Virus record (IMG/VR): IMGVR_UViG_3300032280_000315
Coordinates: 1-39,416 of that record
Direction: 5' to 3' (one strand)
Length of the DNA: 39,416 bases
Source: a virus
Taxonomy: Duplodnaviria; Caudoviricetes
In this document: piece by piece, positions 4,286 to 29,870 of the stretch
Numbering within the stretch: the stretch's first letter is position 1
How the letters are laid out: each line of letters starts with the position of its first letter
Program-made: the position numbers and the translations under genes
The notes under the pieces: generated by a model
Databases searched by the model: none
Seen by the model: the letters and a program-made list of their open reading frames with translations, nothing else
What the model was told of the DNA's origin: nothing

Positions 4286-5131
4286 GTGACAACACTCATC
4301 ACTAGTCTCAAGCAGTTCAGTGAAGTACTCATACAGACCGGCGAGATAGACCCCAGCTATTACATGCTGTATTCCGCCCGACGCTATTCATCTCACGGAG
4401 AGGATTGGGTCAAACGCTTCTGCGTTGCTTACTTGCTGTTCTACCACACCGGGACCGCCGCCAAAGCAGCCGACCACGAGGGCGCAGACTTTTGGCGTTG
4501 TTTGAAGGACGCTTGGGAAAATACTCGGTCGAGGGGGCCGGAACGTCGCCACTTCCGAGGGGACAAATCGTGGGACGCTCTCAAATTTTGCTCCCAGTAC
4601 CACCCCAATAAGCCCGAAGACATGTTTGATGCGCCCCGATTCGCTATCAACTACAAACGGTTCCACGCCGCAGCCGCGAAGTACCCTCAGTTTGGGGACT
4701 ACTTCATTTGGAAATGGAACGACTTCAGCACTTGCGTGTTCGACGACGTTCGCAATATGAATGACTGCGAGTCCTACTTGCCTGACGTCCCCAAGAAAGC
4801 TCTCCAGCGCGTATGGTCGGATCGGCATTGGCAAAATTCGTTTGAGTACCTGATCAACTTGATCAGCGACATTCCTGAGCCGTTTTGCATAATCCCCCGT
4901 CGTCCATGCGGACCTCAAGAAGCGGAGACCATTGCTTGCTCGCTCAAAGGCTACGTTCTGGAGCACCCCCCGACGTACATCGGTTACGATATTCACGAGA
5001 AGCACGCACAGCTTGAGAAACTGATGGGGGAGGACAGCTGGCTTAGCAAGCTCCTGCCGGGTCGCGTTGCCCCCTCCGAATACAAGGTTGACAAAGATGC
5101 CATCCTGGACTCCGCACGGTTACCAGCTTAA
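4286..5131 (+). CDS. Amino acid:DNA transferase (aG/PT-PPlase clade 2, HhH-glycosylase fold)
   Basis: GTG start with AGGAG RBS. Motifs IDPSY, RFCVAYLLFYH, RGPERRHFRG, FGDYFIWK, QEAETIAC and YIGYDIHE match the clade-2 proteins of thymidine-hypermodifying phages. Confidence 0.85.
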   Translation: MTTLITSLKQFSEVLIQTGEIDPSYYMLYSARRYSSHGEDWVKRFCVAYLLFYHTGTAAKAADHEGADFWRCLKDAWENTRSRGPERRHFRGDKSWDALKFCSQYHPNKPEDMFDAPRFAINYKRFHAAAAKYPQFGDYFIWKWNDFSTCVFDDVRNMNDCESYLPDVPKKALQRVWSDRHWQNSFEYLINLISDIPEPFCIIPRRPCGPQEAETIACSLKGYVLEHPPTYIGYDIHEKHAQLEKLMGEDSWLSKLLPGRVAPSEYKVDKDAILDSARLPA

Positions 5132-6496: not shown

Positions 6497-7060
6497 ATGG
6501 ACCTACTCGACCAACGCCTGTACGCCAAGATGAACATCTTCTTCATTGATAGAGATCCCAAACAAGCCGCTATGTGGCTTAAAGACGCCCACATACTTAA
6601 GATGGGCATCGAGTCGGCTCAGCTGCTGTCGACCGCCTGGCACATTCTCAATCCTGGCGACCTACGCTGGTATGAGGGCGTCCCGTTCCTTGAAGATAAG
6701 CCCATTTACAAAAAGACCCACGAAAACCATCCTATGGCGATCTGGGTACGTCAGTCAGTTGGGAACTACAGCTGGTGCTGGCGCCACGGTAAGGCCATTA
6801 TGGCCGAGTACCAGCACCGCTGGGGCGACAAGTCTAAGATCATTCACGCAACCACCTGGATACTTAACACGCTTCAGGAGCTACCCGACAACCTGCCGGA
6901 CGGCGACTTCACTGAACCGCCTCAGTGCATGCCCGAGCAGTACCACGACGCGGACTTTGTGACGGCATATCGCCGCTACTACACCCACGAGAAGATCAAA
7001 CCCAACATTAGCGGTATCGACAAATACACGGACCGGGAGAAGCCAGAATGGAACATCTAA
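6497..7060 (+). CDS. Pyrimidine-dimer DNA glycosylase / endonuclease V-like protein
   Basis: MNIF...D.H.LKM..ESAQLLSTA, YKKTHENHP..IWVR and PPQCMP...AYRRYY motifs. The true start may be ATG 6530 (MNIFF). Confidence 0.8.
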   Translation: MDLLDQRLYAKMNIFFIDRDPKQAAMWLKDAHILKMGIESAQLLSTAWHILNPGDLRWYEGVPFLEDKPIYKKTHENHPMAIWVRQSVGNYSWCWRHGKAIMAEYQHRWGDKSKIIHATTWILNTLQELPDNLPDGDFTEPPQCMPEQYHDADFVTAYRRYYTHEKIKPNISGIDKYTDREKPEWNI

Positions 7061-7638
7061 TTATCAAGCTTCACGGATGCTCGGGCGCGGGCAAAACTAC
7101 CGCAGCGCGGGAGCTCATGGCGTCCTACGGCATCGTCTATCCTATGGACAATTTTGAGCACGCCGGTCGCCGGTACAAGTACGCACATGCGCGACGGCTG
7201 GACGGTAAGCCCGATCTGTACCTCATTGGAGACTACAGCCGACCCGGCTGCGGGGGGACCGACACGATCCCCACGTATACTGTAACAATGGAAATGGTAG
7301 ACTACTTCGTCAAGTACGGTCATGTGTTGTACGAGGGTCTGCTGCTGAGTACCTACTACGGGGCACCCGGCAAGCTGACCGAGCGGTACGGGGACAGCCA
7401 CCTGTTCGCGTTTCTCGACACCCCCGCCGACCTGTGCGTAGAGCGCGTGCGCTCGCGGCGTGAGGCCGCGGGCAGTAAGAACAAGTTTGACCCGCAGCTG
7501 ACCCGCGACAAACACGCTACCATCGAGCGGCTGAAGACCCGAGTCCGAGCAATGGGTCGTAGGGTCGTTGAGCTCGATCACGCCAAGCAACCTGCTCTCC
7601 AGCTGAAGGGACTTTATGACGCACATGTTCCTTCCTGA
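7048..7638 (+). CDS. P-loop kinase, putative 5-hydroxymethyl-dU DNA kinase
   Basis: Walker A GCSGAGKTT, IGDY...CGGTD, VLYEGLLLS and LDTP..CVERV..RR. It sits next to the clade-1 aG/PT-PPlase gene. Confidence 0.82.
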   Translation: MEHLIIKLHGCSGAGKTTAARELMASYGIVYPMDNFEHAGRRYKYAHARRLDGKPDLYLIGDYSRPGCGGTDTIPTYTVTMEMVDYFVKYGHVLYEGLLLSTYYGAPGKLTERYGDSHLFAFLDTPADLCVERVRSRREAAGSKNKFDPQLTRDKHATIERLKTRVRAMGRRVVELDHAKQPALQLKGLYDAHVPS

Positions 7639-8443
7639 GCGGCTGTCAGAGGTCCAGTACTGGATTGAGGAACGCGAGCGGGTCCGAGTCAAACATGACA
7701 GCAATGCCCCCGGCAAATGGTCAGACGACCCCGCCTTCCAGACCATACGATTTTGTAACGTCTACCGGGAGCACGATCGGGTTACTCGTTGGATCGACAT
7801 TAACTGGAGGGAGCCGTTTTTGGAGCACCATATGCTCCCCCTCGCAATGATAATTGCTCGACTTGTAAACTGGCCCGATACGTTGCTCCAATTGGGGTTT
7901 CCGATCAACGGTTGGGACCCTGATTGGTTCAAGAAGGTTCTGGCTCTTCGCAAATCATCAGGGGAGAAGGTCTGGACCAACGCTTACATGGTAACGGGCG
8001 GCTACAGCGAGGGCGGAGAGTCCAAGGAAGTCATCATAGCTCGGGTGATCGACGGAGCCAATTACGCCCTCAACAATTTTCCCCATCCTGAGACCCTCAA
8101 AGGTTGGTTCCAGATGCTGTCGACGCCGGGGCTGGGCCCATTCCTCCGGGGGCAGATCATAGCAGATCTGAAGTACACCCCTGTTCTGCGGGAAGCCCCC
8201 GACTGGTGGACTTGGTGCGCCCCCGGACCGGGGTCGCAGCAAGGGCTGAACTTCTTGATGGGCAAGCCTCAAGCCAAGACCTGGCGCAACGACGACTTTA
8301 TGGAGGCTATCAACAAACTGAGAGAACATCTGCCGGTCGAGATCCACGCTCAAGACGTGCAGAACGTCCTGTGTGAGTACAGCAAATGGTTCAAGTTTAC
8401 TCACCTGGGTACCCCGCCCAAGAACAAATACGTGAGAGTCTAA
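7616..8443 (+). CDS. aG/PT-PPlase clade 1 protein (HhH-glycosylase-like helical fold, thymidine hypermodification)
   Basis: WIEERE...WSDDP...RFCNVYREHDRVT.WI, NAYMV, GLGPFL..QIIADLKY, GPGS..GL and QDVQNVLCEYSK. Confidence 0.88.
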   Translation: MTHMFLPERLSEVQYWIEERERVRVKHDSNAPGKWSDDPAFQTIRFCNVYREHDRVTRWIDINWREPFLEHHMLPLAMIIARLVNWPDTLLQLGFPINGWDPDWFKKVLALRKSSGEKVWTNAYMVTGGYSEGGESKEVIIARVIDGANYALNNFPHPETLKGWFQMLSTPGLGPFLRGQIIADLKYTPVLREAPDWWTWCAPGPGSQQGLNFLMGKPQAKTWRNDDFMEAINKLREHLPVEIHAQDVQNVLCEYSKWFKFTHLGTPPKNKYVRV

Positions 8444-8670
8444 TGTCTTTTATTCATTACATTGTGCACCCCGAGGGGCAAATGGATAAAGTTGAAGGGT
8501 ACATATCAGAGATAGAGGCGCGCAATCGCGCCAAAGAATGGGCGGTTAAATTGACCGGAGTCGAGATCATTATTATGTCGACCCTTGCGATCTACCGCAA
8601 CGTGCCGAAGGTCGAGGAGCAAAAGCTGGAACACATGCCGGAGTCGGTTGCCCCTCTTTACCAGCGTTGA
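8443..8670 (+). CDS. Hypothetical protein (75 aa)
   Basis: ATG overlaps the upstream stop (TAATG). Sequence begins MSFIHYIVHPEG. Confidence 0.65.
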   Translation: MSFIHYIVHPEGQMDKVEGYISEIEARNRAKEWAVKLTGVEIIIMSTLAIYRNVPKVEEQKLEHMPESVAPLYQR

Positions 8671-8805
8671 CCAGCAGTTTTGGGTCATGCGGGTAAAGAG
8701 AGGCAGGCCCGTAGAGCCGCCGCCGGAGGGGTCTGTCCCTTCTACTGTCCCCCCTCCCGGCGACGCCCGCTAGCAGGCAGATTTTTGGCCGTATAGGGAT
8801 CAACT

Positions 8806-9567
8806 ATGACCGAACGACGAACGGAAACGGCGCTGGTAAATGGGTACAATATCACCCTTCCCGTAGGTGTAACCGAGACAATGAAAACCAAAGTGAAAGA
8901 CTCGTACCAGAGCTTCACGCGCGACGGACTGTACCACGTGATGAGGCATATCTATGCCTACACGACAATGATGCCCCCGCTACTTAAGGAGCAACGTCCG
9001 ACTCACATTTTGCACCCCTTTGGGGGCCTGGGCGGAATGGCCCAACTGATCGAACAGGTCTGCGACTGGGATGTGTACCAAGAGTTTTGGGAGCGCGATC
9101 CTGATTGCGTAGCTTGGCTCAGAGAGCATTGGCACGACGTAGTTCTCGCTCAGGACAGCATTAAATGGTTACTGAGAGAAGAGCAGTGGCTTGACCAATG
9201 GGACTGGATCATCTTCGATCTGTCCGTCAGCACGATCAAGACGCCGGGGGTCAAAGAATGCTGGGAGCGGTTCGGCCACTACTTCCGCAAGGGTACACTC
9301 AAAGCTGTTTGGTTGACGGATACAGCGTGTCACAAAATCCACCTGAACGGCCGCACCTACGCCAAGGACTTTGGGTACGATACCCCCACATCTGAGGAAT
9401 ACCTGCGCGCCTACGACGAAGTGATCCTCAGACCCAAAGGTATGTGCATCAACCGAGCTATGCGAGAGGCGGGATCATACTACGCGATGATCACCGCCGC
9501 CAAGCCTGAGCGATTCGGGGAGATTACTTACATGGGTTCTCTGGATTCGCTCAACCTTAGCAAGTAG
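8806..9567 (+). CDS. Putative class I SAM-dependent transferase (Rossmann fold)
   Basis: Motif I ILHPFGGLG, acidic motif II WERDPDC, motif III QDSIKWL and motif IV WDWIIFDLS. No (D/N)PP(Y/F) or PC motif. Confidence 0.65.
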   Translation: MTERRTETALVNGYNITLPVGVTETMKTKVKDSYQSFTRDGLYHVMRHIYAYTTMMPPLLKEQRPTHILHPFGGLGGMAQLIEQVCDWDVYQEFWERDPDCVAWLREHWHDVVLAQDSIKWLLREEQWLDQWDWIIFDLSVSTIKTPGVKECWERFGHYFRKGTLKAVWLTDTACHKIHLNGRTYAKDFGYDTPTSEEYLRAYDEVILRPKGMCINRAMREAGSYYAMITAAKPERFGEITYMGSLDSLNLSK

Positions 9568-9593
9568 ACGGAGAAGTTGATCGAAGCTAGACT
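9565..9593 (+). promoter_or_regulatory. Putative promoter for the nucleotide-metabolism operon
   Basis: TAGACG-17-TAGACT, followed by a GTCGGC...GCCGAC hairpin and a GGAG RBS. Confidence 0.6.
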
Positions 9594-9641
9594 AGAAGGG
9601 TCGGCGGCTATGGGGGTCGCCGACACTATACGGAGAACAAC

Positions 9642-9911
9642 ATGGCCCATTTGAAAGTCGTCAAGTCCGCTACCGAAGCAGTCAACAATATCGCCCGTTG
9701 CCGCCCGCGACCCTACACAACTTACTACTTCAAGCGAGGCCAGCTCAGCCCAATCCGCATTGCTCGGTCTACCAGCCCGACCGCCGCCCTTTGCGCGGTC
9801 GTTCGTCGCATCGGAGAGGGGGAGCCCATCTACGTCGCAGAGATCATCAATTCCACCGGTAAGCTGCTTAAGACCGTCCGCGTCCATTACAGAAAAATCG
9901 AGATCAAATGA
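9642..9911 (+). CDS. Hypothetical basic protein
   Basis: 89 aa with a GGAG RBS and an ATGA overlap with the next gene. Confidence 0.75.
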   Translation: MAHLKVVKSATEAVNNIARCRPRPYTTYYFKRGQLSPIRIARSTSPTAALCAVVRRIGEGEPIYVAEIINSTGKLLKTVRVHYRKIEIK

Positions 9912-10897
9912 AGACACTGACCTGTCGTAACGTCAACGACGGGTTCGTGGAAGCCCTGTGGTACATGCGTATCCAGGGCGTCCGCGAAAACACCCGTAAC
10001 GGTCCCGTCAGATCAGCTGAGGGGCCGGTTATTGTTGAGTTCCAAAAGCCATGGGAACGTACCCATTTCTGCGCCGTCCGCGACGCCAACCCGTTCTTCC
10101 ACGTTATGGAAGCAATGTGGATGCTCGCAGGGCGGAACGACGTCAAATGGCCCGCTTCGTTCGCCTCCAACATTGCCAACTACTCGGACAATGGTCTAAC
10201 CCTTCACGGCGCCTACGGGTACAGGTGGCTGAACCATTTCGGTCCCGATCAGATCCAAGAAGTTATCGACCACCTTAAAGCTGACCCCCAGACCCGTAGG
10301 GCCGTCATCAGCATGTGGGACCCGGTCAGCGACCTCAAAATGGTGGAAACTGGGGGCAAAGACGTCCCGTGCAACACGCACATCTATTTCCGACCGCGGG
10401 GCGCATTTCTCGACATGACGGTGTGCAACCGTTCCAACGACCTTGTGTGGGGGCTGTTCGGGGCCAACGTCGTACACATGTCGTTCCTTCACGAGTTCAT
10501 CGCGGCGGCGACCGGCTTCCAAATGGGCAGCTACTACCAGATGACCAACAATTTGCACGTGTACGAGCAGCATTGGCCCCTTCTGGAACATCCACCTATT
10601 GCCCTTCAAGGGGCCGATCAAGGTACGCGAGTACCGCTCACAGACGACGGGTACTACGCAGGTTTGTACCGGGATCTAGTATGGTTCCTGAATGACCCCG
10701 AGGGCGAGTACAGATACCATAATTCGTGGTTCGTCTCGGTTCTCAAACCGATGTACCTGGCTCACAAACTCTACAAACAAGACAAGCTGGGCGAAGCGAT
10801 TGACCAGTCGGCGCTGATTGCCGACTCAGATTGGAGCGCAGCTTGCTGCCTCTGGCTCAGCCGTCGTGCGAAAAAGAAGGAGCAACTTGATGCGTGA
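9908..10897 (+). CDS. Thymidylate synthase homolog, putative dUMP hydroxymethyltransferase
   Basis: TRNG, RDANPFFH..EAMWMLAGRND, HGAYGYRW, TRRAVISMWD, catalytic PC (DVPCN), RSND and NLHVY. Asn occupies the uracil-specificity position (GANVV). Confidence 0.9.
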   Translation: MKTLTCRNVNDGFVEALWYMRIQGVRENTRNGPVRSAEGPVIVEFQKPWERTHFCAVRDANPFFHVMEAMWMLAGRNDVKWPASFASNIANYSDNGLTLHGAYGYRWLNHFGPDQIQEVIDHLKADPQTRRAVISMWDPVSDLKMVETGGKDVPCNTHIYFRPRGAFLDMTVCNRSNDLVWGLFGANVVHMSFLHEFIAAATGFQMGSYYQMTNNLHVYEQHWPLLEHPPIALQGADQGTRVPLTDDGYYAGLYRDLVWFLNDPEGEYRYHNSWFVSVLKPMYLAHKLYKQDKLGEAIDQSALIADSDWSAACCLWLSRRAKKKEQLDA

Positions 10898-11375
10898 TTT
10901 CGGAGCACTGTACCGGGCGGGGGCAGTGGAGCGGTTCCATACGATGCCGACCCACCAGCGGCAGACGATCGCAGACCACTCGTGGGGGGTTATCATGATT
11001 GTGCTGGCAATCTCCAACAACCCCAACGTCAATCTGATCAAAGCTGCGGCGACCCACGATCTGGCGGAGTCCGTCACAGGCGACCTCCCGGCCACCGTCA
11101 AATGGGACGAGCCTCAGCTTTGTCGTGAGATCGAGGCGCTGGAGCAGAAATTCGCGATCAAACACAACATTTTCCCGTATTTGGATAAGCTTGAGGAAGA
11201 AATTCTGCGCTGGGCCGATATGGCCGAGCTTGTCATGTTCTGCGAGGGGGAGATCCGGCTTGGCAACCAGAACCTGGCTGCGGTATGGCGGCGCGGTATC
11301 CTACGTTTGGAACAGATGGGGTTCCCTACCGATAAAGCTGAAGGATTTTACAATGACCACATTAATCCCGTCTGA
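10890..11375 (+). CDS. HD-domain 5'-deoxynucleotidase (YfbR-like)
   Basis: VERFH...TIADHS...THDLAESVTGDLP...WADMAE. ATG 10890 has an AAGGAG RBS. Confidence 0.88.
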   Translation: MRDFGALYRAGAVERFHTMPTHQRQTIADHSWGVIMIVLAISNNPNVNLIKAAATHDLAESVTGDLPATVKWDEPQLCREIEALEQKFAIKHNIFPYLDKLEEEILRWADMAELVMFCEGEIRLGNQNLAAVWRRGILRLEQMGFPTDKAEGFYNDHINPV

Positions 11376-11637
11376 CGCTAATTCCCGCCAGGTCGGCGGT
11401 TCTCATTACAAGTCCGAGATCCAGCACTGGGACTACGTTGTAGCCAACAATCTGGACTACTTCCAAGGGCAGATCACAAAATACGTGACTCGGTGGAAGG
11501 AGAAGAACGGCATTCAAGATCTGAAGAAGGCCCAGCATTTCCTGGAGAAGTACATCCAGGTGCAAGAGGCCAAGCTAGGCCCGATTCACGCAGCACTTGA
11601 TGGGGAGGCAGACTCCCGATACGTCAACCAAGATTGA
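11353..11637 (+). CDS. DUF3310-family protein (related to T7 gp1.7 nucleotide kinase)
   Basis: QVGGSHY...WD...YFQG..TKYVTRWKEKNGIQDLKKA.HFL. ATG 11353 has an AAGGA RBS. Confidence 0.85.
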   Translation: MTTLIPSDANSRQVGGSHYKSEIQHWDYVVANNLDYFQGQITKYVTRWKEKNGIQDLKKAQHFLEKYIQVQEAKLGPIHAALDGEADSRYVNQD

Positions 11638-11644
11638 ACCTCAA

Positions 11645-11740
11645 ATGGCTATCCTGCTGATAGGAACGCTCATTTATATCCTCTTGCTCGGAGCGATATT
11701 AGCGCTGCTAATGTCCAACGGCAAAGACGACGAAGATTGA
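11645..11740 (+). CDS. Small single-pass membrane protein (31 aa)
   Basis: Manual translation gives MAILLIGTLIYILLLGAILALLMSNGKDDED. It starts 8 bp after the DUF3310 stop. Confidence 0.5.
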   Translation: MAILLIGTLIYILLLGAILALLMSNGKDDED

Positions 11741-11808
11741 GCAGGTAACGTCGGGAGACTGTGACCCCCCAACTGGATGCTGGCTCTCCATAGCTCAAAA
11801 ACCAGCAC

Positions 11809-11925
11809 CTACCACTTAATTTTGATTCCAATCATTAGCGCTGCGCGCTTCCAGACTGGTGTAGAAAGGCCCGGCAGGTCCGGCTGAACTTTCGACCAGA
11901 CGCGAACCCACCGGAGCCAACGCAC
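11809..11925 (-). CDS. Small cationic Trp-rich peptide at the end of the lysis cassette (38 aa)
   Basis: GTG start 3 bp after the holin-like stop. Manual translation gives MRWLRWVRVWSKVQPDLPGLSTPVWKRAALMIGIKIKW. Confidence 0.45.
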   Translation of the reverse strand: MRWLRWVRVWSKVQPDLPGLSTPVWKRAALMIGIKIKW

Positions 11926-11928
11926 GAC

Positions 11929-12105
11929 TTACGCCTTGCGCTCGGGGAGAAACACTGCGATTGCGGCAAAGACCGCAGCGACCGCATTGGTGATCGCGCT
12001 CAGCTGCTCGGGGGCGACAGCCCAACCAAACGTTGCGGTCAGACCCCCCAGACCCAGGTAGGTCGAGGGCTCTTTGAGACGATTGACGATGAAATCAAGA
12101 AACAT
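11929..12105 (-). CDS. Holin-like membrane protein (58 aa)
   Basis: RLKEPSTYLGL motif, two hydrophobic segments and a GGAGG RBS. It overlaps the endolysin stop. Confidence 0.7.
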   Translation of the reverse strand: MFLDFIVNRLKEPSTYLGLGGLTATFGWAVAPEQLSAITNAVAAVFAAIAVFLPERKA

Positions 12106-12625
12106 TGGGAGCCTCCAAGGCAGTTGCGAAAAGACGAGTGAGCCAGCCATAGCCGTACCGCCCATACTTCGGATGCTTCTGGTACCGAAGTGCGCGGAGG
12201 GCCATAAACCGAGCCGGGCGACGGTCATCCCCCGACCTCATTGCGGTCAGCGTGCGCTGACCGAGCTTGCCGTCCACGGTCACTCCAACTGCGTCTTGCA
12301 GTAGAATGATCGCGGTCGGCACGCCTTGGTTGACAGCGCAGTCAAACATCAGCAGCTGCCATGTAAAATTGGGGTACTCATCAGCTCTGATTCGGCTCCA
12401 GTAGTCCCGCAGGTAGATCGCTCGCGCATCTTCCAGAGACAAATTGCGTATGTCCAGATCGGGGTACGCCCCCGCACTGATACCGTACTTGGTACCTTCA
12501 AGCTGACCCAGGCCGATTTGTCCCCCGGTCCAGTTGCCGCTGTCTTGGGGGTCGTCATCAAAGACCCCCTCGCTGTTGACAATTGCGCGGAAGCAGCGAT
12601 CAAACGGGTTGACGACGACGGTCAA
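12095..12625 (-). CDS. Endolysin, glycoside hydrolase family 108 with peptidoglycan-binding domain
   Basis: EG...DPQDSG...GTKYGIS, IY.RDYW, FDCAVNQG, LQ.AVGV..DG.LG and YG.GWL.R. Confidence 0.92.
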   Translation of the reverse strand: MTVVVNPFDRCFRAIVNSEGVFDDDPQDSGNWTGGQIGLGQLEGTKYGISAGAYPDLDIRNLSLEDARAIYLRDYWSRIRADEYPNFTWQLLMFDCAVNQGVPTAIILLQDAVGVTVDGKLGQRTLTAMRSGDDRRPARFMALRALRYQKHPKYGRYGYGWLTRLFATALEAPNVS

Positions 12626-12834
12626 TGGTCACCCTCTTCATGGCGAAAGGTATTGGGCCGACGACACATGCGATACCAGCGATGAGCCAGATAGCCGATC
12701 TGGACCAAAACGTAAATAATTGTTAAAGCAACAAGTATTGTATTCAGGTTAAACCCCGCAACTAGAGCCGTAGTAGCCCCAACTGCGGGGGCGCCTTTCA
12801 GCGCTTCAGCGACGACCTCGGCTTTCTGATCCAT
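12622..12834 (-). CDS. Putative holin
   Basis: 70 aa with a hydrophobic core and basic C-terminus, directly upstream of the endolysin. Confidence 0.65.
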   Translation of the reverse strand: MDQKAEVVAEALKGAPAVGATTALVAGFNLNTILVALTIIYVLVQIGYLAHRWYRMCRRPNTFRHEEGDH

Positions 12835-12882
12835 AATTACAGCTCCGCATCGAGCAGTGGGCTTGGGTCGCGGGACTGGCCG

Positions 12883-13284
12883 CTACGCTTCGATCGACGC
12901 TGCCGCGACGAACAGCGCGTCGATGTCGGCGTCCGACATGCCGAGCGCGGCCCCCATTGCGGCGACCGTCGGCGACTTGCGGCGGAACTCGATCGCTTCC
13001 TGCCAGGCCAGGCGCGCGAGAACAGGCGTCGACGGGCTCTGCATGAGCGCCTCGACTGCGGCAAGCTGGCCGGCAAGGTGCAGCGCGGCCCGGGCTTGGA
13101 ATCGGGAAACGGGCGACGGCACAGGCACCGGGGGCTCGGGCTCGATGTCGGCCACGCCGCCCTCGGTCTGCCACGCGAGGAATTCCACATAGTCGCGGTT
13201 GCCGGGGGCGGCAGGTATGAACATCGCCTCGTCATCGGCGCCTTTGCGAATCATCCCGCTGCGCAAAATCGTATACTGGGGCAT
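12883..13284 (-). CDS. Tail-fibre-associated protein (putative assembly chaperone)
   Basis: FIP..PGNRDY.EFLAW and VSRFQARAAL...W..A.EF.R.SP...LG....ID.LF..A motifs, typical of genes following tail fibres. Confidence 0.7.
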   Translation of the reverse strand: MPQYTILRSGMIRKGADDEAMFIPAAPGNRDYVEFLAWQTEGGVADIEPEPPVPVPSPVSRFQARAALHLAGQLAAVEALMQSPSTPVLARLAWQEAIEFRRKSPTVAAMGAALGMSDADIDALFVAAASIEA

Positions 13285-13285
13285 G

Positions 13286-14563
13286 TTAGACCTCCGCATC
13301 GAGAGCATAGTTCATAAGCCACCAGTTGCCGGCAGCGGACGGGATAGACATGTCAATTCGGAAACTACTGTTTGAAGCCGTTACTGCGCCCCCACTCGGC
13401 GTGACGTTGTTACCGCTGGCCGCCGTAGTGACGCGGTTCGCGTTCCCGGCAGCGTCAAAGAAAGTAATACTGGGGGTGGTGCGCATCACAACAGGCAGCG
13501 TCAAAGAATGACCAATGTAGGTCGTCGTGCTGTAGGTGCCAACTTGCCCTACTTGGTAGTACCGCTGGCACAGCACCAGCTCGATCGTGAGTGGGCGCTG
13601 CTCAAACTCAGTTTCGAATGTACTTTCTTCAACCTGAACATTCGCAATATCGAATGTCCCGGACTGCTGACCCAAGGAAGCTGTTCGGTCATTCCAGGTT
13701 GAACCTGCGTCGAACCAGAAAATTAACTCCAGATTATCGTTGTCGGCACTCCCCAGTACTTTGCCGACGATAGATGGTATCGCTATCGTCGCAGAAAACC
13801 TCTGCCAAGCAGTCGTAAGGTTGAACTTTTGCGACCCGATAGCGTTGACTGCGGCAGATGGCGAGCCACCCGTGCCAAAGTTTTGCGCCATTGAAATAGC
13901 AATTGGTCGTGCCGCGTCAGCCTTTGCCGAAAAACTGACGCGCGCGTTCACCCCAGAAAGAGTCCGGACGTTCTCTATTTCCTGTGCTTTTATAACCAGG
14001 TTGTTAGCGCCAGCCACGCTAGTCACGACGGTACGAGAGAAAAAAGTCGGATTACCCGGTACATCCGTCTGTCCCAGCGGAAAAACCTCCCGGGAGTGTA
14101 GCTTCGTGGAGCCTTGATGGTAGTTGATCCAGCGATCGTCCGAACCATACCCGGGCGTGCTTTGCGACGCCCCGCGCTGCCATACGGAAAAGTCGCCATT
14201 GATCAGCTTGTTCCGAAACGTCGGCTGGTAGTTTGTCAGCTGTTGAAGGGGAACAGCTTGCAAAGGCTGCGTAACGTTACCCGGCAGCTGCAGCGGACCG
14301 GTTGAAGCAAGTACGCCTGCTGCCGGTCTGTAAAACCCAAGCGTCGGCTCCGAACTGAAAGTATACGCCGGGAGCAAAGCAGTACCGTTGACCCCAGCGA
14401 GGGGGGCCGTCATGCCCCCATTTCCGGTCCGCGACAGGGAATCCGTGAGAGCATCTTTGATGTCGTTCAGCGTGTTGTTAGCCCACGTGGACGTTATCGG
14501 CGTTGCCGTCACCACCGGATTGCCGACGGGAAGGGTGTAATTACCGCTTACGTCACGCGACAT
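13286..14563 (-). CDS. Tail fibre / receptor-binding protein
   Basis: Podophage fibre N-terminus MSRD.SG.YTLP.GNPV, and a RNKLINGDF.VWQRG...DRW...EL.LCQRYY domain. Confidence 0.85.
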   Translation of the reverse strand: MSRDVSGNYTLPVGNPVVTATPITSTWANNTLNDIKDALTDSLSRTGNGGMTAPLAGVNGTALLPAYTFSSEPTLGFYRPAAGVLASTGPLQLPGNVTQPLQAVPLQQLTNYQPTFRNKLINGDFSVWQRGASQSTPGYGSDDRWINYHQGSTKLHSREVFPLGQTDVPGNPTFFSRTVVTSVAGANNLVIKAQEIENVRTLSGVNARVSFSAKADAARPIAISMAQNFGTGGSPSAAVNAIGSQKFNLTTAWQRFSATIAIPSIVGKVLGSADNDNLELIFWFDAGSTWNDRTASLGQQSGTFDIANVQVEESTFETEFEQRPLTIELVLCQRYYQVGQVGTYSTTTYIGHSLTLPVVMRTTPSITFFDAAGNANRVTTAASGNNVTPSGGAVTASNSSFRIDMSIPSAAGNWWLMNYALDAEV

Positions 14564-17870: not shown

Positions 17871-18806
17871 TTAGCCCATCCGGGAGCCGATTTGCGACCC
17901 GATTTGCGCCCCTTTGAACGCCCCCGCAGGACCTCCAGCCAAGAACCCGCCCCCGGCCCCAAGAAGAGTGGTTCCTGCTCTAATCAGTCCGCCGCGACGA
18001 TTGCTACGAGCCGCTTGTTGAGCGTTGTACCGCTGGATGGCCGCCGCGTCTTGATCTTGACCAGCTTGGTAAACTTGCGCAGCGTCGAACTGCGTACCCG
18101 TGTTGAAATTCTCAAACTGGGGCTGCATACCTTGCTCAGTAGCTTGAAACTGAGCGTATTCTTGCATCGGCAGCGAGCGGCGGCGCAGGGCTTCGCTCAA
18201 CTGCTGAGCGCGAGTCTGATTTTGCTGAGTAGCCAACCCGGACTGACGATCCACGAGGTTCCCCGACACGTCAACCGCCGACAGCAGCGCTTTGCGTTCT
18301 GCGTCGTTCTCGCGGATGCTAATGTCCTCGTTGGTGCGCTGAGACAACCGAGTGTTGCCAACGTTGCCCATTGCCGACAGACGAGTTTGGTCCCGCTCAC
18401 GAGCGCGGTCGAGTCCCGGCTGGAGCGCCCCCATCATAGCGTCTTGGACTTCCTTCACGTATCCAAACTCGCCCTTGGAGGGGTCAACCGTGGCGTAGTC
18501 TACCATGTTAGGGTTGAACTCAGACATTGCGGTTTCAGACGCACGCCCCATCAGCCCGCCTCGGGCCGTCCGAGACTGGTCTAGCAAAGCCTGGTCTTGC
18601 GCGTTCAAACTTGTGGTCTGAGTCCACTGGCCATTCGGCCCCTCGTTCCATTGTACAGACCCCCAAGGGTTGACTTGGTTGGGTCGGTTGGTACGAGTCT
18701 GCTGCTGAGCCGCTTGACGGCCCAGATCCGCTTGCTGAGTAGCAAGCGCAGCGTAATCAGGTGCCGGCGCAGGTGCCGGCGGCGGCGCTGCTGGCTTTTT
18801 GGCCAT
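17871..18806 (-). CDS. DNA transfer / pilot-like virion protein
   Basis: APDY...NRPNQVNPWGS N-terminus, Gln/Ala-rich body and Gly-rich hydrophobic C-terminus. Confidence 0.7.
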   Translation of the reverse strand: MAKKPAAPPPAPAPAPDYAALATQQADLGRQAAQQQTRTNRPNQVNPWGSVQWNEGPNGQWTQTTSLNAQDQALLDQSRTARGGLMGRASETAMSEFNPNMVDYATVDPSKGEFGYVKEVQDAMMGALQPGLDRARERDQTRLSAMGNVGNTRLSQRTNEDISIRENDAERKALLSAVDVSGNLVDRQSGLATQQNQTRAQQLSEALRRRSLPMQEYAQFQATEQGMQPQFENFNTGTQFDAAQVYQAGQDQDAAAIQRYNAQQAARSNRRGGLIRAGTTLLGAGGGFLAGGPAGAFKGAQIGSQIGSRMG

Positions 18807-19239
18807 GTGAGGTTCCTCTTGCCCAACGGGCGCGATTATACGTGGCCCGGCTTAGGCAGTAAAGCTCGCCGGTACGACCAGGTCCATACCAATCTTGAAG
18901 TCTGCCTTCGTTCACGAAACCCAGCCGTTCTAACTGCTTACCCCAAGCTACGTTGCGAGTATCTGTGATAGAAGTGAGGCGAGTACGAGCATTGTCGGCA
19001 AAGCAGAAATCGCCAATTGCTCGCAGAAACCGACGGTTGGCCCAACGCTTAGAGTGATCCGTGACCAAAGTAAGCTCGACATTGTGTTCCCCCCAATCCG
19101 AAAGGGCGCAAATGGCCAAGGCAAAGCCGAGGTCGTCAACGAGCGTGATCAAATATGAGGTACGCGGAGAATGCGACGAATCCAGCTCCTGATTGAGCAG
19201 CCAGAAGAAGGCAGGCAGCTGATCGTGCACAACCTTCAC
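18757..19239 (-). CDS. GNAT-fold protein of the podophage tail module
   Basis: N......ERLGF..EG.L motif, located between the tail tube and pilot genes. Confidence 0.75.
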   Translation of the reverse strand: MKVVHDQLPAFFWLLNQELDSSHSPRTSYLITLVDDLGFALAICALSDWGEHNVELTLVTDHSKRWANRRFLRAIGDFCFADNARTRLTSITDTRNVAWGKQLERLGFVNEGRLQDWYGPGRTGELYCLSRATYNRARWARGTSHGQKASSAAAGTCAGT

Positions 19240-27290: not shown

Positions 27291-27393
27291 TTTTCATGGT
27301 TCCTTTCCGGCGCAGGGCTTGCGCCATTTTGTTCGCCTGCTGGGGACTGACAGGCTTTTTGTTGGGAGCGGGTTTCTGCGGCATTTTTGTCAT
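27280..27393 (-). CDS. Small basic protein (37 aa)
   Basis: ATGA overlap with the stop of the 826-aa gene. Manual translation gives MTKMPQKPAPNKKPVSPQQANKMAQALRRKGTMKNGC. It overlaps the scaffold start. Confidence 0.55.
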   Translation of the reverse strand: MTKMPQKPAPNKKPVSPQQANKMAQALRRKGTMKNGC

Positions 27394-29870
27394 AGCAAAT
27401 TATCTCCATCCGGGGGGATGTCATTTACAAGATCGCCTGGGGCTGCGGCGGGTCCGTCAGGGAGCAAGCGGGGACCCCCTTCATCAATCAGCCCTCGGAT
27501 TCGCATTGCGTTGATGATACGATCCACCAGTCGCTGATTGCCGTTGTTAAGCTGCTCCTCAAGCATAGTGATCAGCCGCTCGGCGTCGGCCATAAGCTCG
27601 TTGTTTGCGAATACTGCGTCCGCTATGCGATGACCCGTGAGGTCTTCAAACTCCCACATCTGCTGGGTCAACGGGCGACCAAAATTGACTGCTTGAGGGG
27701 CGACAGGAGCGGCCTGAACAGGAGCGTCGTACACGTTGCGCTCGCCGCGCAAAGCGCGCATAACTCGATGTGCTGCTTCGCGGTCGTGGCCACCTTCTCT
27801 GATATCAAGTAGTAGCTGGTTCCAATTATCGCCCTGCCGATGAAGCGCTTGTATGATATCCCTTCGATCCAAGGTGCGAACAAACCGGCGCTCGTCAGGA
27901 TCTAAGAAATCCATGTAACGTAGTCCATCAGCTACGTTCATAATTTCATCAGGATTAAACTTGTATTCAGTTTTGGGAACCTTGTCCGCCAAACGATTCA
28001 AGTCTTCATCCGTAATCCATCTACCCTCTTTGTCAACGGTACGCAGATTTTCAAGTTCTTGCGCTACGCCCTCGGGCAAATTGTCGTTGAGGGGATCCAA
28101 GGCATCTGCTACCTTGCTCTTGTCTCTTAAACCGTACGCATAGGCGATCGGGTCTTGCCGGGACATGTTCGCAAAGCGGTCGTTTACGAAGTCAGGCTCG
28201 GGGAGGCCGACCGGCTCGATCAGATTGATGCTGTCCGGGTTGGTCTTACGCAGGAAATCCTGCACTTTGGCCAAATACTTGTCGGGGAAAGAGTTGCCTC
28301 TACCCATTGCCTGGCTAATGTTGCCCATACCTTCAGGATCTGCTCCTTGGGGACGGCGGTATCGGTACAGGTTGCCTTCAGCGTCAATCGTGACGTTGGG
28401 CATGCCCTGCGCGTCTCGCAGAGAAAGAATGCGCTTCTCGCCGCGCTCTATCATCGCACAGTAGTTGCCGACGCAGTGCCCCATAAGATCGCCTTCAGCT
28501 CGCAGCTGATTGTGATTGGGAGGGATCTCCACCCATTTGGAGCCGTCGTCGTACTCCAGCCCTTTGAACGCCGGCAAGTCTTTGGTAGATTGAGCGCTGA
28601 TAGTCTTGGGCTCGTCAATCGCAGACTTAACCAAACGCTGAGCCGCGTCCGGGATGCCCACCTGAATGCGACCTTGGTTGTTAAGAGGGATCTTGCCCGC
28701 GCGCAGTTCCTCGGCAATAAGCTCTACCATGCGGGGGAAGCCCAGATCGTCAATTCTTTCTTTGAACTCCCTTCTCATGTAAGGGTCGCCGTCCACCGGC
28801 AGAGTATGAATGGCGCGCTCGCTGGGAAGCTTCTCCATCCATTCTGGAAGCTCTACCCCTGCGTCTTTGCTGGTCGCAACGTAGTTTCTTGCGGATTCCG
28901 GTCGAACCACCGCGTCGGTGATATTCTCAAACAAGATCCCGCCGGTAAAATCGTGGTTTCCATAAGGGTCGGTTGCGTCACCAATTTTCTCCGGGTTGTC
29001 AAAGGTGTTCTCCAGAATGCCTAGACCCTTCTTTTGAGCGTCGTCCAGCGTTGCGATGTCGCTGGCTTGCTGTCGATTCTCTTTGGATGCTATGTATACC
29101 GCATCAGTTTCATCGCTGGGGTCCGCGCCGCCCCAGCCCCCGCCTTGAGTGTACTTGTCAAATTGATCATACGTCATGTGTCCCCGGTTAGGGTTGTACG
29201 GTACGTTGGGCCGACCAAGCGAAGCTGCCTTGACGGGGTCATCCTTGGTACCCCAATCATTCTTGAGGTACTTGCCCATGGTACCGGTGATCCAGTTGTC
29301 CAGCGCGGCATCCTGCGTCGGGTCGTCCATCTTGGGACGCTTGGACCGCAGATAATCCGTAATGAACTCGATGTGGCCCGGGGCCCAGTTGCCACCCTTG
29401 CCCTTGATGATCTCTGCCACCGGACCGGAGCCGACAACCGCCTGCTGGATCTCACGAGCGCCCTGCTTGATCCCCTGAGGAACCTTGGCTGCGACCTGCT
29501 CCAGCCCCTTGCTGACCGCTCGGCCCGCAGCTTTGTGAGCTATGTTGGCAACGGGGGCCGCATCCATGCCCAGCAGCATCAGATCCGCCACGCCTTTCTT
29601 GCGCCCGGTCTTCATCACCGGGATTTTGGACATTTCCGGCATGCGCATGGGCATATCGCCATACGCGAGGTTCTCAGCCTCTTTGTCGGCGTCCCCGATG
29701 AAAAGCTCGCCCAGCGGGTTGTCCTGCGTAGTCTTGAGCGGCTCGCCGCCTTTGGACATCCAGGCCGTGGTGCCCTTGGGCGTCGGCTCCTTCAGCTTAC
29801 GCAGCGCGTTGGCGATCCGCATTCCCAGCGGATTGGGCTCAAGGTTCTCGATCTTGCCGGTTATTTCCAT
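27390..29870 (-). CDS. Large protein with PcfJ-like domain (putative virion-packaged, polyvalent-type protein)
   Basis: L.AEG..MGHCVG.Y...ILSLRD..G.P.VTI is the PcfJ-like signature. 826 aa, between portal and scaffold. Confidence 0.7.
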   Translation of the reverse strand: MEITGKIENLEPNPLGMRIANALRKLKEPTPKGTTAWMSKGGEPLKTTQDNPLGELFIGDADKEAENLAYGDMPMRMPEMSKIPVMKTGRKKGVADLMLLGMDAAPVANIAHKAAGRAVSKGLEQVAAKVPQGIKQGAREIQQAVVGSGPVAEIIKGKGGNWAPGHIEFITDYLRSKRPKMDDPTQDAALDNWITGTMGKYLKNDWGTKDDPVKAASLGRPNVPYNPNRGHMTYDQFDKYTQGGGWGGADPSDETDAVYIASKENRQQASDIATLDDAQKKGLGILENTFDNPEKIGDATDPYGNHDFTGGILFENITDAVVRPESARNYVATSKDAGVELPEWMEKLPSERAIHTLPVDGDPYMRREFKERIDDLGFPRMVELIAEELRAGKIPLNNQGRIQVGIPDAAQRLVKSAIDEPKTISAQSTKDLPAFKGLEYDDGSKWVEIPPNHNQLRAEGDLMGHCVGNYCAMIERGEKRILSLRDAQGMPNVTIDAEGNLYRYRRPQGADPEGMGNISQAMGRGNSFPDKYLAKVQDFLRKTNPDSINLIEPVGLPEPDFVNDRFANMSRQDPIAYAYGLRDKSKVADALDPLNDNLPEGVAQELENLRTVDKEGRWITDEDLNRLADKVPKTEYKFNPDEIMNVADGLRYMDFLDPDERRFVRTLDRRDIIQALHRQGDNWNQLLLDIREGGHDREAAHRVMRALRGERNVYDAPVQAAPVAPQAVNFGRPLTQQMWEFEDLTGHRIADAVFANNELMADAERLITMLEEQLNNGNQRLVDRIINAMRIRGLIDEGGPRLLPDGPAAAPGDLVNDIPPDGDNLL

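Follow-up and report, generated by a model that had tools for sequence, protein, structure and literature searches.

Closest described systems

The pathways nearest to the one considered here are those of phages M6, ViI, PaMx11 and PhiW-14 (PMC8989533) and of SH-Ab 15599 (PMC13458397). As the passages on thymidine hypermodification in these papers describe them, they share a core composed of a dUMP hydroxymethylase (dUMP-HM) or a TET enzyme, an hmU kinase and an amino-acid/diamine:DNA transferase (AADT), complemented by modular tailoring genes. The tailoring enzymes described there are radical SAM enzymes, PLP enzymes, a flavin lyase and an acetyltransferase; the same passages contain no methyltransferase step, and the one proposed below is only predicted. 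The term 'methyltransferase' occurs 0 times in the main text of PMC13458397 and was unmatched at word start in PMC5889632. Passages of PMC13229309 and its preprint include 'O-methyltransferases' when listing the Pfam annotations of genes next to TET, and the methyltransferase Pfams named in those of the preprint are not among the Pfams matched by the family described here. Our literature search turned up no publication in which hypermodified thymine is acted on by a methyltransferase; figures, supplements or Iyer 2013 may already show the gene.

The DNA analysed in this study (hereafter the window) is a complete virus record of 39,416 bases with direct terminal repeats, from an uncultured phage. 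An earlier note on this DNA had singled out the gene at 8806-9567 as encoding a SAM-dependent transferase in a modification cluster. Our analyses support its reading in part, namely that the product is a predicted SAM-fold enzyme unlike standard DNA methyltransferases, which travels with hypermodification genes.

The modification cluster of the window

The left arm of the genome carries, in this order, genes for DNA polymerase A, a PD-(D/E)XK nuclease, a VRR-NUC protein, AADT, an SNF2 helicase, a glycosylase-like protein, a P-loop kinase and a clade-1 aGPT-Pplase, then a small ORF, the gene at 8806-9567, another small ORF, a thymidylate-synthase-family gene, an HD nucleotidase gene and a DUF3310 gene. 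The AADT (a clade-2 aGPT-Pplase; 4286..5131, plus strand, as are all genes of the cluster detailed here) matched 25qc (E 2e-16) and 8z2m (E 2e-10) in phmmer searches, and PhiW-14 gp109, M6 gp51 and PaMx11 gp46 in tblastn searches. The pyrimidine-dimer-glycosylase-like gene (6497..7060; PF03013, E 1e-4, just under the cut-off) belongs to a family that is a frequent neighbour, being present in 17 of 85 loci. The P-loop kinase (7048..7638), a predicted 5-hmdU DNA kinase, matched PF18748 under the cut-off (E 2e-5) and is 31% identical to M6 gp54 (E 2.5e-15), and the clade-1 aGPT-Pplase (7616..8443; PF18723, E 3e-34) is 31% identical to M6 gp55.

As the earlier note had placed it, the gene at 8806-9567 lies between this clade-1 gene and the thymidylate-synthase-family gene (9908..10897; PF00303, E 4e-22; phrog_5131, E 1e-101), of which the product is, judging from the context, probably a dUMP hydroxymethylase rather than a synthase. 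The small ORFs on either side (8443..8670, within ORF 8386-8670, and 9642..9911) appeared not to be conserved in the cluster, with no match in loci L001-L013. Downstream are the HD-domain nucleotidase gene (10818..11375, likely start near 10890; PF12917, E 1e-14) and the DUF3310 gene (11125..11637, likely start near 11353; PF11753, E 1e-7). The AADT-type thymidine hypermodification set, comprising an hmU source, an hmU DNA kinase and an AADT with catalytic Glu/Thr/Cys, was thus found entirely in the window. Pfam scans of the complete genome (12 + 37 = 49 ORF entries) detected no PLP, radical SAM or flavin enzyme. Far from this cluster, the virion module carries a weak match to GNAT acetyltransferases (18760-19239, minus strand; E 0.001), and an 826-aa protein with a PcfJ-like domain is encoded between portal-like and capsid-region genes (27393-29870, minus strand).

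The AADT sequence bears on the side chain to be expected. According to passages in PMC11472151 and PMC13458397, glycine:DNA transferases (M6, YuA and PaMx11) carry Trp146 and a Lys after the catalytic Cys. Diamine:DNA transferases (PhiW-14 and SH-Ab 15599) carry Tyr139, a small residue at 227, Asp238 and Asp243; a Tyr in place of the diamine-binding D238 abolished diamine transfer (PMC13458397). The window AADT keeps the PaMx11 gp46 residues D24, E92, R94, H95, K150, E243, T244 and C247, with the catalytic E-T-x-x-C intact. It has Tyr for the glycine-binding Trp146, as does PhiW-14 gp109, and Ser after the catalytic Cys, at a position occupied by Lys in glycine transferases and by Gly in diamine transferases. 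Among the diamine determinants, Tyr (139), a small residue (Ser, 227) and Asp243 are present, and Thr stands at 238; AADTs of the sister clade have an apparent Tyr at the D238 position, where the alignment is gapped. The window AADT grouped with those of PhiW-14 and nACB2 (SH-like support 91; FastTree); our FastTree trees raised long-branch warnings and carry no claim on the order of events. As the glycine determinants are missing and the protein groups with diamine transferases, the adduct in the window phage is probably no amino acid, and the 'amino-acid adduct' suggested earlier as the substrate is probably wrong for this phage. Glycine is an unlikely donor on these sequence grounds, and a diamine or other non-glycine amine is the probable one; the Thr at D238 and the apparent Tyr in the sister clade leave a diamine plausible and unproven. 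A separate case is the AADT of the cultured Rhodoferax phage P26218 (L085, 8956-9789), the pocket of which resembles neither the glycine nor the diamine type (the catalytic Cys is followed by Val, and Arg replaces D243), making it a candidate for producing another undescribed base.

The gene at 8806-9567 and its viral family

The gene starts with ATG, preceded by a purine-rich stretch, and encodes 253 aa. Its GC3 (0.67) falls within that of the neighbouring genes (0.63-0.71). Promoter and terminator searches around the gene gave nothing above chance, the region 8640-8810 upstream folded no better than shuffled sequences (z -1.38), and no RNA holder was listed. A 17-base inverted repeat (8649-8705, 88% complementary) overlaps the small upstream ORF at its end. 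The protein is a small single domain without an extra DNA-binding domain, and is not basic (30 K+R vs 34 D+E). It matched no Pfam or NCBIfam family; a weak PHROG match to phrog_363, 'DNA methyltransferase' (E 0.003), covers motifs I-III.

A word search with the protein retrieved 19 close proteins including itself (41-84% identity), and the profile built from them retrieved 180 representatives at E≤0.001. After fragments, over-long entries and some near-duplicates were left out, 139 proteins were aligned. The profile of the window's clade matched that of 91 distant members across 219 columns (probability 99.9). All four motifs noted earlier, HPFGGLG (aa 70-76), ERDPDCV (96-102), QDSIKWL (116-122) and WDWIIFDLS (132-140), are present in the translation, and they exceed chance, as (i) the motif I pattern is kept in 136 of the 139 aligned relatives, (ii) D138 is kept in 99% of them, and (iii) the predicted structure has a class I fold of the Rossmann type. 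Further conserved positions are E/D96 (in all members), D117, T143, D172 (99%), H179, Y185 (98%) and Y199 (99%); position 70 is His in the window's clade instead of the usual acid. The claimed lack of the catalytic motifs of DNA methyltransferases holds throughout the family: neither [DNS]PP[YFW] nor G[FPS]PC occurs in any of the 139 members, and the window protein contains no PC dipeptide.

The family seems to have escaped annotation. For ten members looked up in databases, nine had no named cluster member and one had only a 'hypothetical protein'; the clear structural relatives are two uncultured-phage models with the sole label 'AdoMet_MTases domain'; and an Atlas search placed unnamed viral clusters on top, followed by RsmD-like folds. 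Pfam matches of the 139 members were weak, the commonest being TRM5-TYW2. No match was obtained by tblastn with four members against 50,697 records of annotated phages, a collection that includes M6, PaMx11, PhiW-14 and SH-Ab 15599, at a sensitivity that a distant member could escape. GTDB genomes yielded no relative in two scans with short-motif patterns, which may miss some, and a viral scan with the single protein P0151 found none. We regard the group as a widespread unannotated viral family, likely representing a tailoring enzyme of a known pathway.

Predicted fold and nearest structures

The Rossmann-type SAM-enzyme fold proposed earlier is predicted with confidence. AlphaFold2 models of the window protein and of a distant member, P0072, reached pLDDT values of 94.7 and 97.9, respectively; the two lie in the 26%-or-less identity range of the family. 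In the window model, strands and helices alternate and a hairpin closes the C-terminus. A fold search with this model yielded 402 chains at Z≥8, and the top 50 were nearly all class I SAM enzymes.

The best and longest structural match for both models was Trm1, the tRNA G26 N2,N2-dimethyltransferase (3axs, 3axt and 2dul). For the window protein, Trm1 came first in Foldseek (E 2e-7) and in VIA-align (Z 14.4 across 221 residues and Z 14.8 across 218), and for P0072 it came first in VIA-align (Z 15.5 over 212 residues). Next came mostly RNA base methyltransferases aligned over about 165-195 residues, the structures ranked after Trm1 being RlmKL, TrmM, Trm5, RsmD-like proteins and TYW2. Trm1 ranked first in four fold searches by a lead of about 1 Z only (0.9-1.3 above RlmKL for the window protein and <1 over Trm5 for P0072). 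Given this margin, we take the models as firmly indicating closeness to RNA base methyltransferases in fold, and a derivation from Trm1 as a lead.

Although the class I fold is shared, the family differs from Trm1 in several respects. Identity is 10-12%, and Trm1 has 367-387 aa against about 250 in the family, which is found in a phage DNA-modification setting. The Trm1 motif, DP[FY]G (DPFG), occurs in none of the 139 members. PF02005 (Trm1) had no match in the window genome although the controls rang, and is absent from the families matched by the 139 members. A C-terminal family profile compared with PDB sequences gave chance matches, with no Trm1 at E≤10.

Gene neighbourhoods of the family

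Loci were collected by seven viral scans and one metagenome scan; the sampling was motif-driven and covers only some clades. The 111 sequences examined comprise five control phages without the gene and 106 sequences with it, and dropping ten same-contig repeats left 96 carrier contigs, including the window. Marker profiles were built from neighbouring gene families that were identified separately: kinase PF18751, TET PF12851, PF00303, PF18723 and PALP, the M6-type AADT via PDB, and the PLP and radical SAM markers via M6 gp52 and gp53. The second, ViI-like AADT marker was identified by a profile match (probability 94.8); in addition, phage Montesquieu has an annotated homolog, and a Kuttervirus protein is 27% identical.

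In the fetched DNA, 85 of the 96 carrier contigs bear an AADT (M6/PhiW-14 type in 23, ViI-like type in 62), 84 an hmU kinase and 81 an hmU source (TET in 57, dUMP-HM in 24); a PLP gene was found in 19 and a radical SAM gene in 14. As many of the contigs are close kin, the count was repeated over 20 clusters at 40% identity, in which AADT appeared in 15, kinase in 14, hmU source in 11, PLP decarboxylase in 15 and radical SAM in 11. At least one pathway-type neighbour is present in 20 of 20 clusters, across podo-, T4-like and other contigs and with shuffled gene order. The published background, as given in a passage of PMC8989533, is about one phage in 2000, and our comparison rests on that figure, not on random contigs.

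The predicted co-occurrence of homologs with AADT and kinase genes was thus seen, with one exception. Nine of the 11 contigs missing AADT end 0-2.2 kb from the gene on the relevant side, and in L107 the AADT lies further upstream on the contig, outside the fetched DNA. The remaining one (L013) belongs to G001, a complete 79.7-kb genome in which a scan of 59 ORFs detected no AADT, kinase, TET or dUMP-HM, and which is the one true exception. In G001, two radical SAM genes, a gene of the family, a PLP enzyme gene and an LPG-synthase-C-like gene form a cluster (8772-14405, in the order radical SAM, family gene, PLP enzyme, second radical SAM, LPG-synthase-C-like gene), possibly serving a different modification route.

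In 13 of the 15 PLP-bearing clusters, some member has a PLP gene (M6-gp52-like or a second type) within 300 bases of the family gene, as measured between stop-to-stop frames. The PLPa genes beside the family are M6 gp52 homologs (32-74% identity), and a passage of PMC8989533 assigns the M6-gp52-like PLP enzyme to the production of a primary amine. A PLP gene is absent from the window and from most TET clusters. The cluster most similar to that of M6 is L105 (9825-16774; gp52 74%, gp53 76%, gp54 84%, gp55 73%), in which a 198-aa family member (9825-10418) precedes the AADT immediately. Contigs L017-L069, both T4-like and ParB-bearing, share a recurring TET - methyltransferase - ViI-like AADT - kinase cassette, the AADT of which had no Pfam match at E 0.01.

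Several other features of these contigs were observed. Two family paralogs each are present on L102 (two matches) and L107 (9818-12184), the L107 pair flanking a PLP gene. The M6-gp53-like radical SAM gene of L014 (4482-6884, 801 aa) has a long insertion within its cysteine motif, which, judged by eye, looks like an intein. L013, L015, L075 and L107 encode a DNA polymerase A that is joined in one protein with a uracil-DNA-glycosylase-like domain (Pfam-confirmed for L013); the same fusion is described for T-modified phages in a passage of PMC13697223.

Phages with an AADT but no family gene also exist: the family profile, which rings in the window genome, had no match in the genomes of five AADT-family phages (P26218, ctfPj964, Zemanar, Montesquieu and RHph_I65), marking the gene as an accessory one. 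Rhodoferax phage P26218 (KP792623) and ctfPj964 (MW202557) are small phages similar to that of the window and share polymerase, helicase, AADT, kinase, dUMP-HM-like, HD and DUF3310 genes; they have no family gene and, in the fetched 18 kb, no clade-1 gene, and may serve as natural unmethylated controls.

Proposed function and alternatives

We propose that the enzyme N-methylates the free amine of the thymine side chain on phage DNA, a reading to which we give slightly more than an even chance. In the window phage, dUMP hydroxymethylase would place hmU in the DNA, the kinase would phosphorylate it there, AADT would replace the phosphate with an amine other than glycine, putrescine or another diamine being the probable choice, and the enzyme would finally methylate the free amine once or several times. 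In relatives, the side chain to be methylated would be aminoethyl (5-NedU), as expected in M6-like contexts, or aminoethoxy (5-NeOmdU) or seryl, as expected in ViI-like ones (with or without PLP); the other expected side chain is a diamine. The products expected in all these gene contexts would have a free amine in common, and this, together with the PLP gene within 300 bases and a fold nearest to N-methyltransferases, makes N-methylation on DNA the simplest reading. Within thymine hypermodification, the enzyme would likely act last, as an optional tailoring step. Trm1, which N-methylates with repeated turnover, may serve as the model for the chemistry; on the other side stand the small Trm1 lead with no sequence backing, a protein that is not basic, and G001, which lacks the thymine pathway.

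PaMx11 gp48, the acetyltransferase that yields 5-AcNmdU, offers a comparable case, in which the free amine of a modified thymine receives a terminal cap, except that its acetyl-CoA GNAT chemistry removes the charge, which methylation would keep. A further parallel is MnmC, which N-methylates aminomethyl-uridine in tRNA, an amine on uracil C5, in a SAM-dependent manner; the substrate proposed here would be DNA, and MnmC is neither a sequence match nor a top structural match of the family. A tRNA parallel has been drawn for the flavin step in a passage of PMC8989533.

An attractive, if rather unlikely, possibility is the recruitment of a Trm1-like enzyme to DNA, where repeated methylation would give permanently charged trimethylammonium side chains on thymine. 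The particular products, an equally tentative and doubtful matter, would then include a trimethyl-diamine in the window phage; M6-like phages would carry a trimethyl-aminoethyl group and ViI-like phages a choline ether, with paired paralogs (L016 and L107) splitting the steps.

The enzyme might instead modify the side-chain amine by transfer of an aminocarboxypropyl group, as TYW2 does, or of an aminopropyl group, after which the PLP enzyme could trim the product; we judge this decidedly unlikely. TYW2 appeared in the fold searches (Z 11.4 and 13.7), weak TRM5-TYW2 matches occur in 8 of the 139 members (best E of the TYW2-type profiles, 6e-4), the Taw2 NCBIfam matches two or three members, and the PLP genes are tightly linked to the family. 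These PLPa genes are, however, already explained, as homologs of M6 gp52, by decarboxylation of the amino-acid adduct, and the trimming partner is missing where no PLP gene exists, as in the window. GGGDG, the motif I of spermidine synthases, occurs in none of the 139 members, PF01564 matches one of them weakly, and a probable spermidine synthase came only at rank 22 (Z 11.6) in the window fold search. Spermidine synthases thus rank below RNA N-methyltransferases, so that the likeness to them noted earlier did not stand; their chemistry is unsupported, and a TYW2-like transfer is possible.

Clearly improbable, in our view, is methylation of the hmU hydroxyl or of the phosphate of phospho-hmU, which would cap the residues that AADT leaves. 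Nearly every context also shares hmU and phospho-hmU, as the counts of hmU sources and kinases attest, so co-occurrence cannot separate O- or phosphate methylation from N-methylation, and BCDIN3D, which we take to be a phosphate methyltransferase, ranked third in Foldseek for the window protein. The best aligned structures are nevertheless mostly base N-methyltransferases. None of the 11 AADT-less contigs that has full flanks carries both kinase and hmU source; six of the 11 have an hmU gene, and these contigs stop close to the family gene. G001 has the family gene without any hmU gene.

The order of events could also be reversed, with the enzyme methylating a free donor such as a diamine or serine before AADT loads it and a similar final base resulting. 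The small non-basic single domain, weak matches to the lipid amine N-methyltransferases OlsG (10 of 139) and PmtA (7 of 139) and the altered AADT pockets in the window's clade would suit such an enzyme. We consider it very unlikely, as the closest folds act on nucleic-acid polymers, and as in M6-like clusters the primary amine arises, according to a passage of PMC8989533, only after on-DNA steps, yet the family gene is present in L105.

A conventional methyltransferase for nucleobases, tRNA or proteins that merely rides in the replication region is highly improbable: the phrog_363 match, G001 and the two contigs in which the family gene lies 6-9 kb away from AADT (L073 and L100) would fit, but DPPY/NPPY and PC motifs are absent in 139 members and pathway-type neighbours accompany every cluster in shuffled gene order.

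Implications

N-methylation of the side-chain amine is cheaply testable, because substrates exist (M6, ViI and PhiW-14 DNA) and L105 is an M6-like cluster differing mainly by the family gene. Labelling is a possible use of the enzyme. If the proposal is true, it would be a fifth kind of tailoring enzyme in thymidine hypermodification, and several undescribed DNA bases would be predicted in phages known from sequence databases and apparently not from culture collections. If the trimethylammonium version were true, a whole series of undescribed bases would exist in uncultured podo-, T4-like and other phages. A methylated amine could shift the recognition of the phage DNA by modification-dependent host nucleases.
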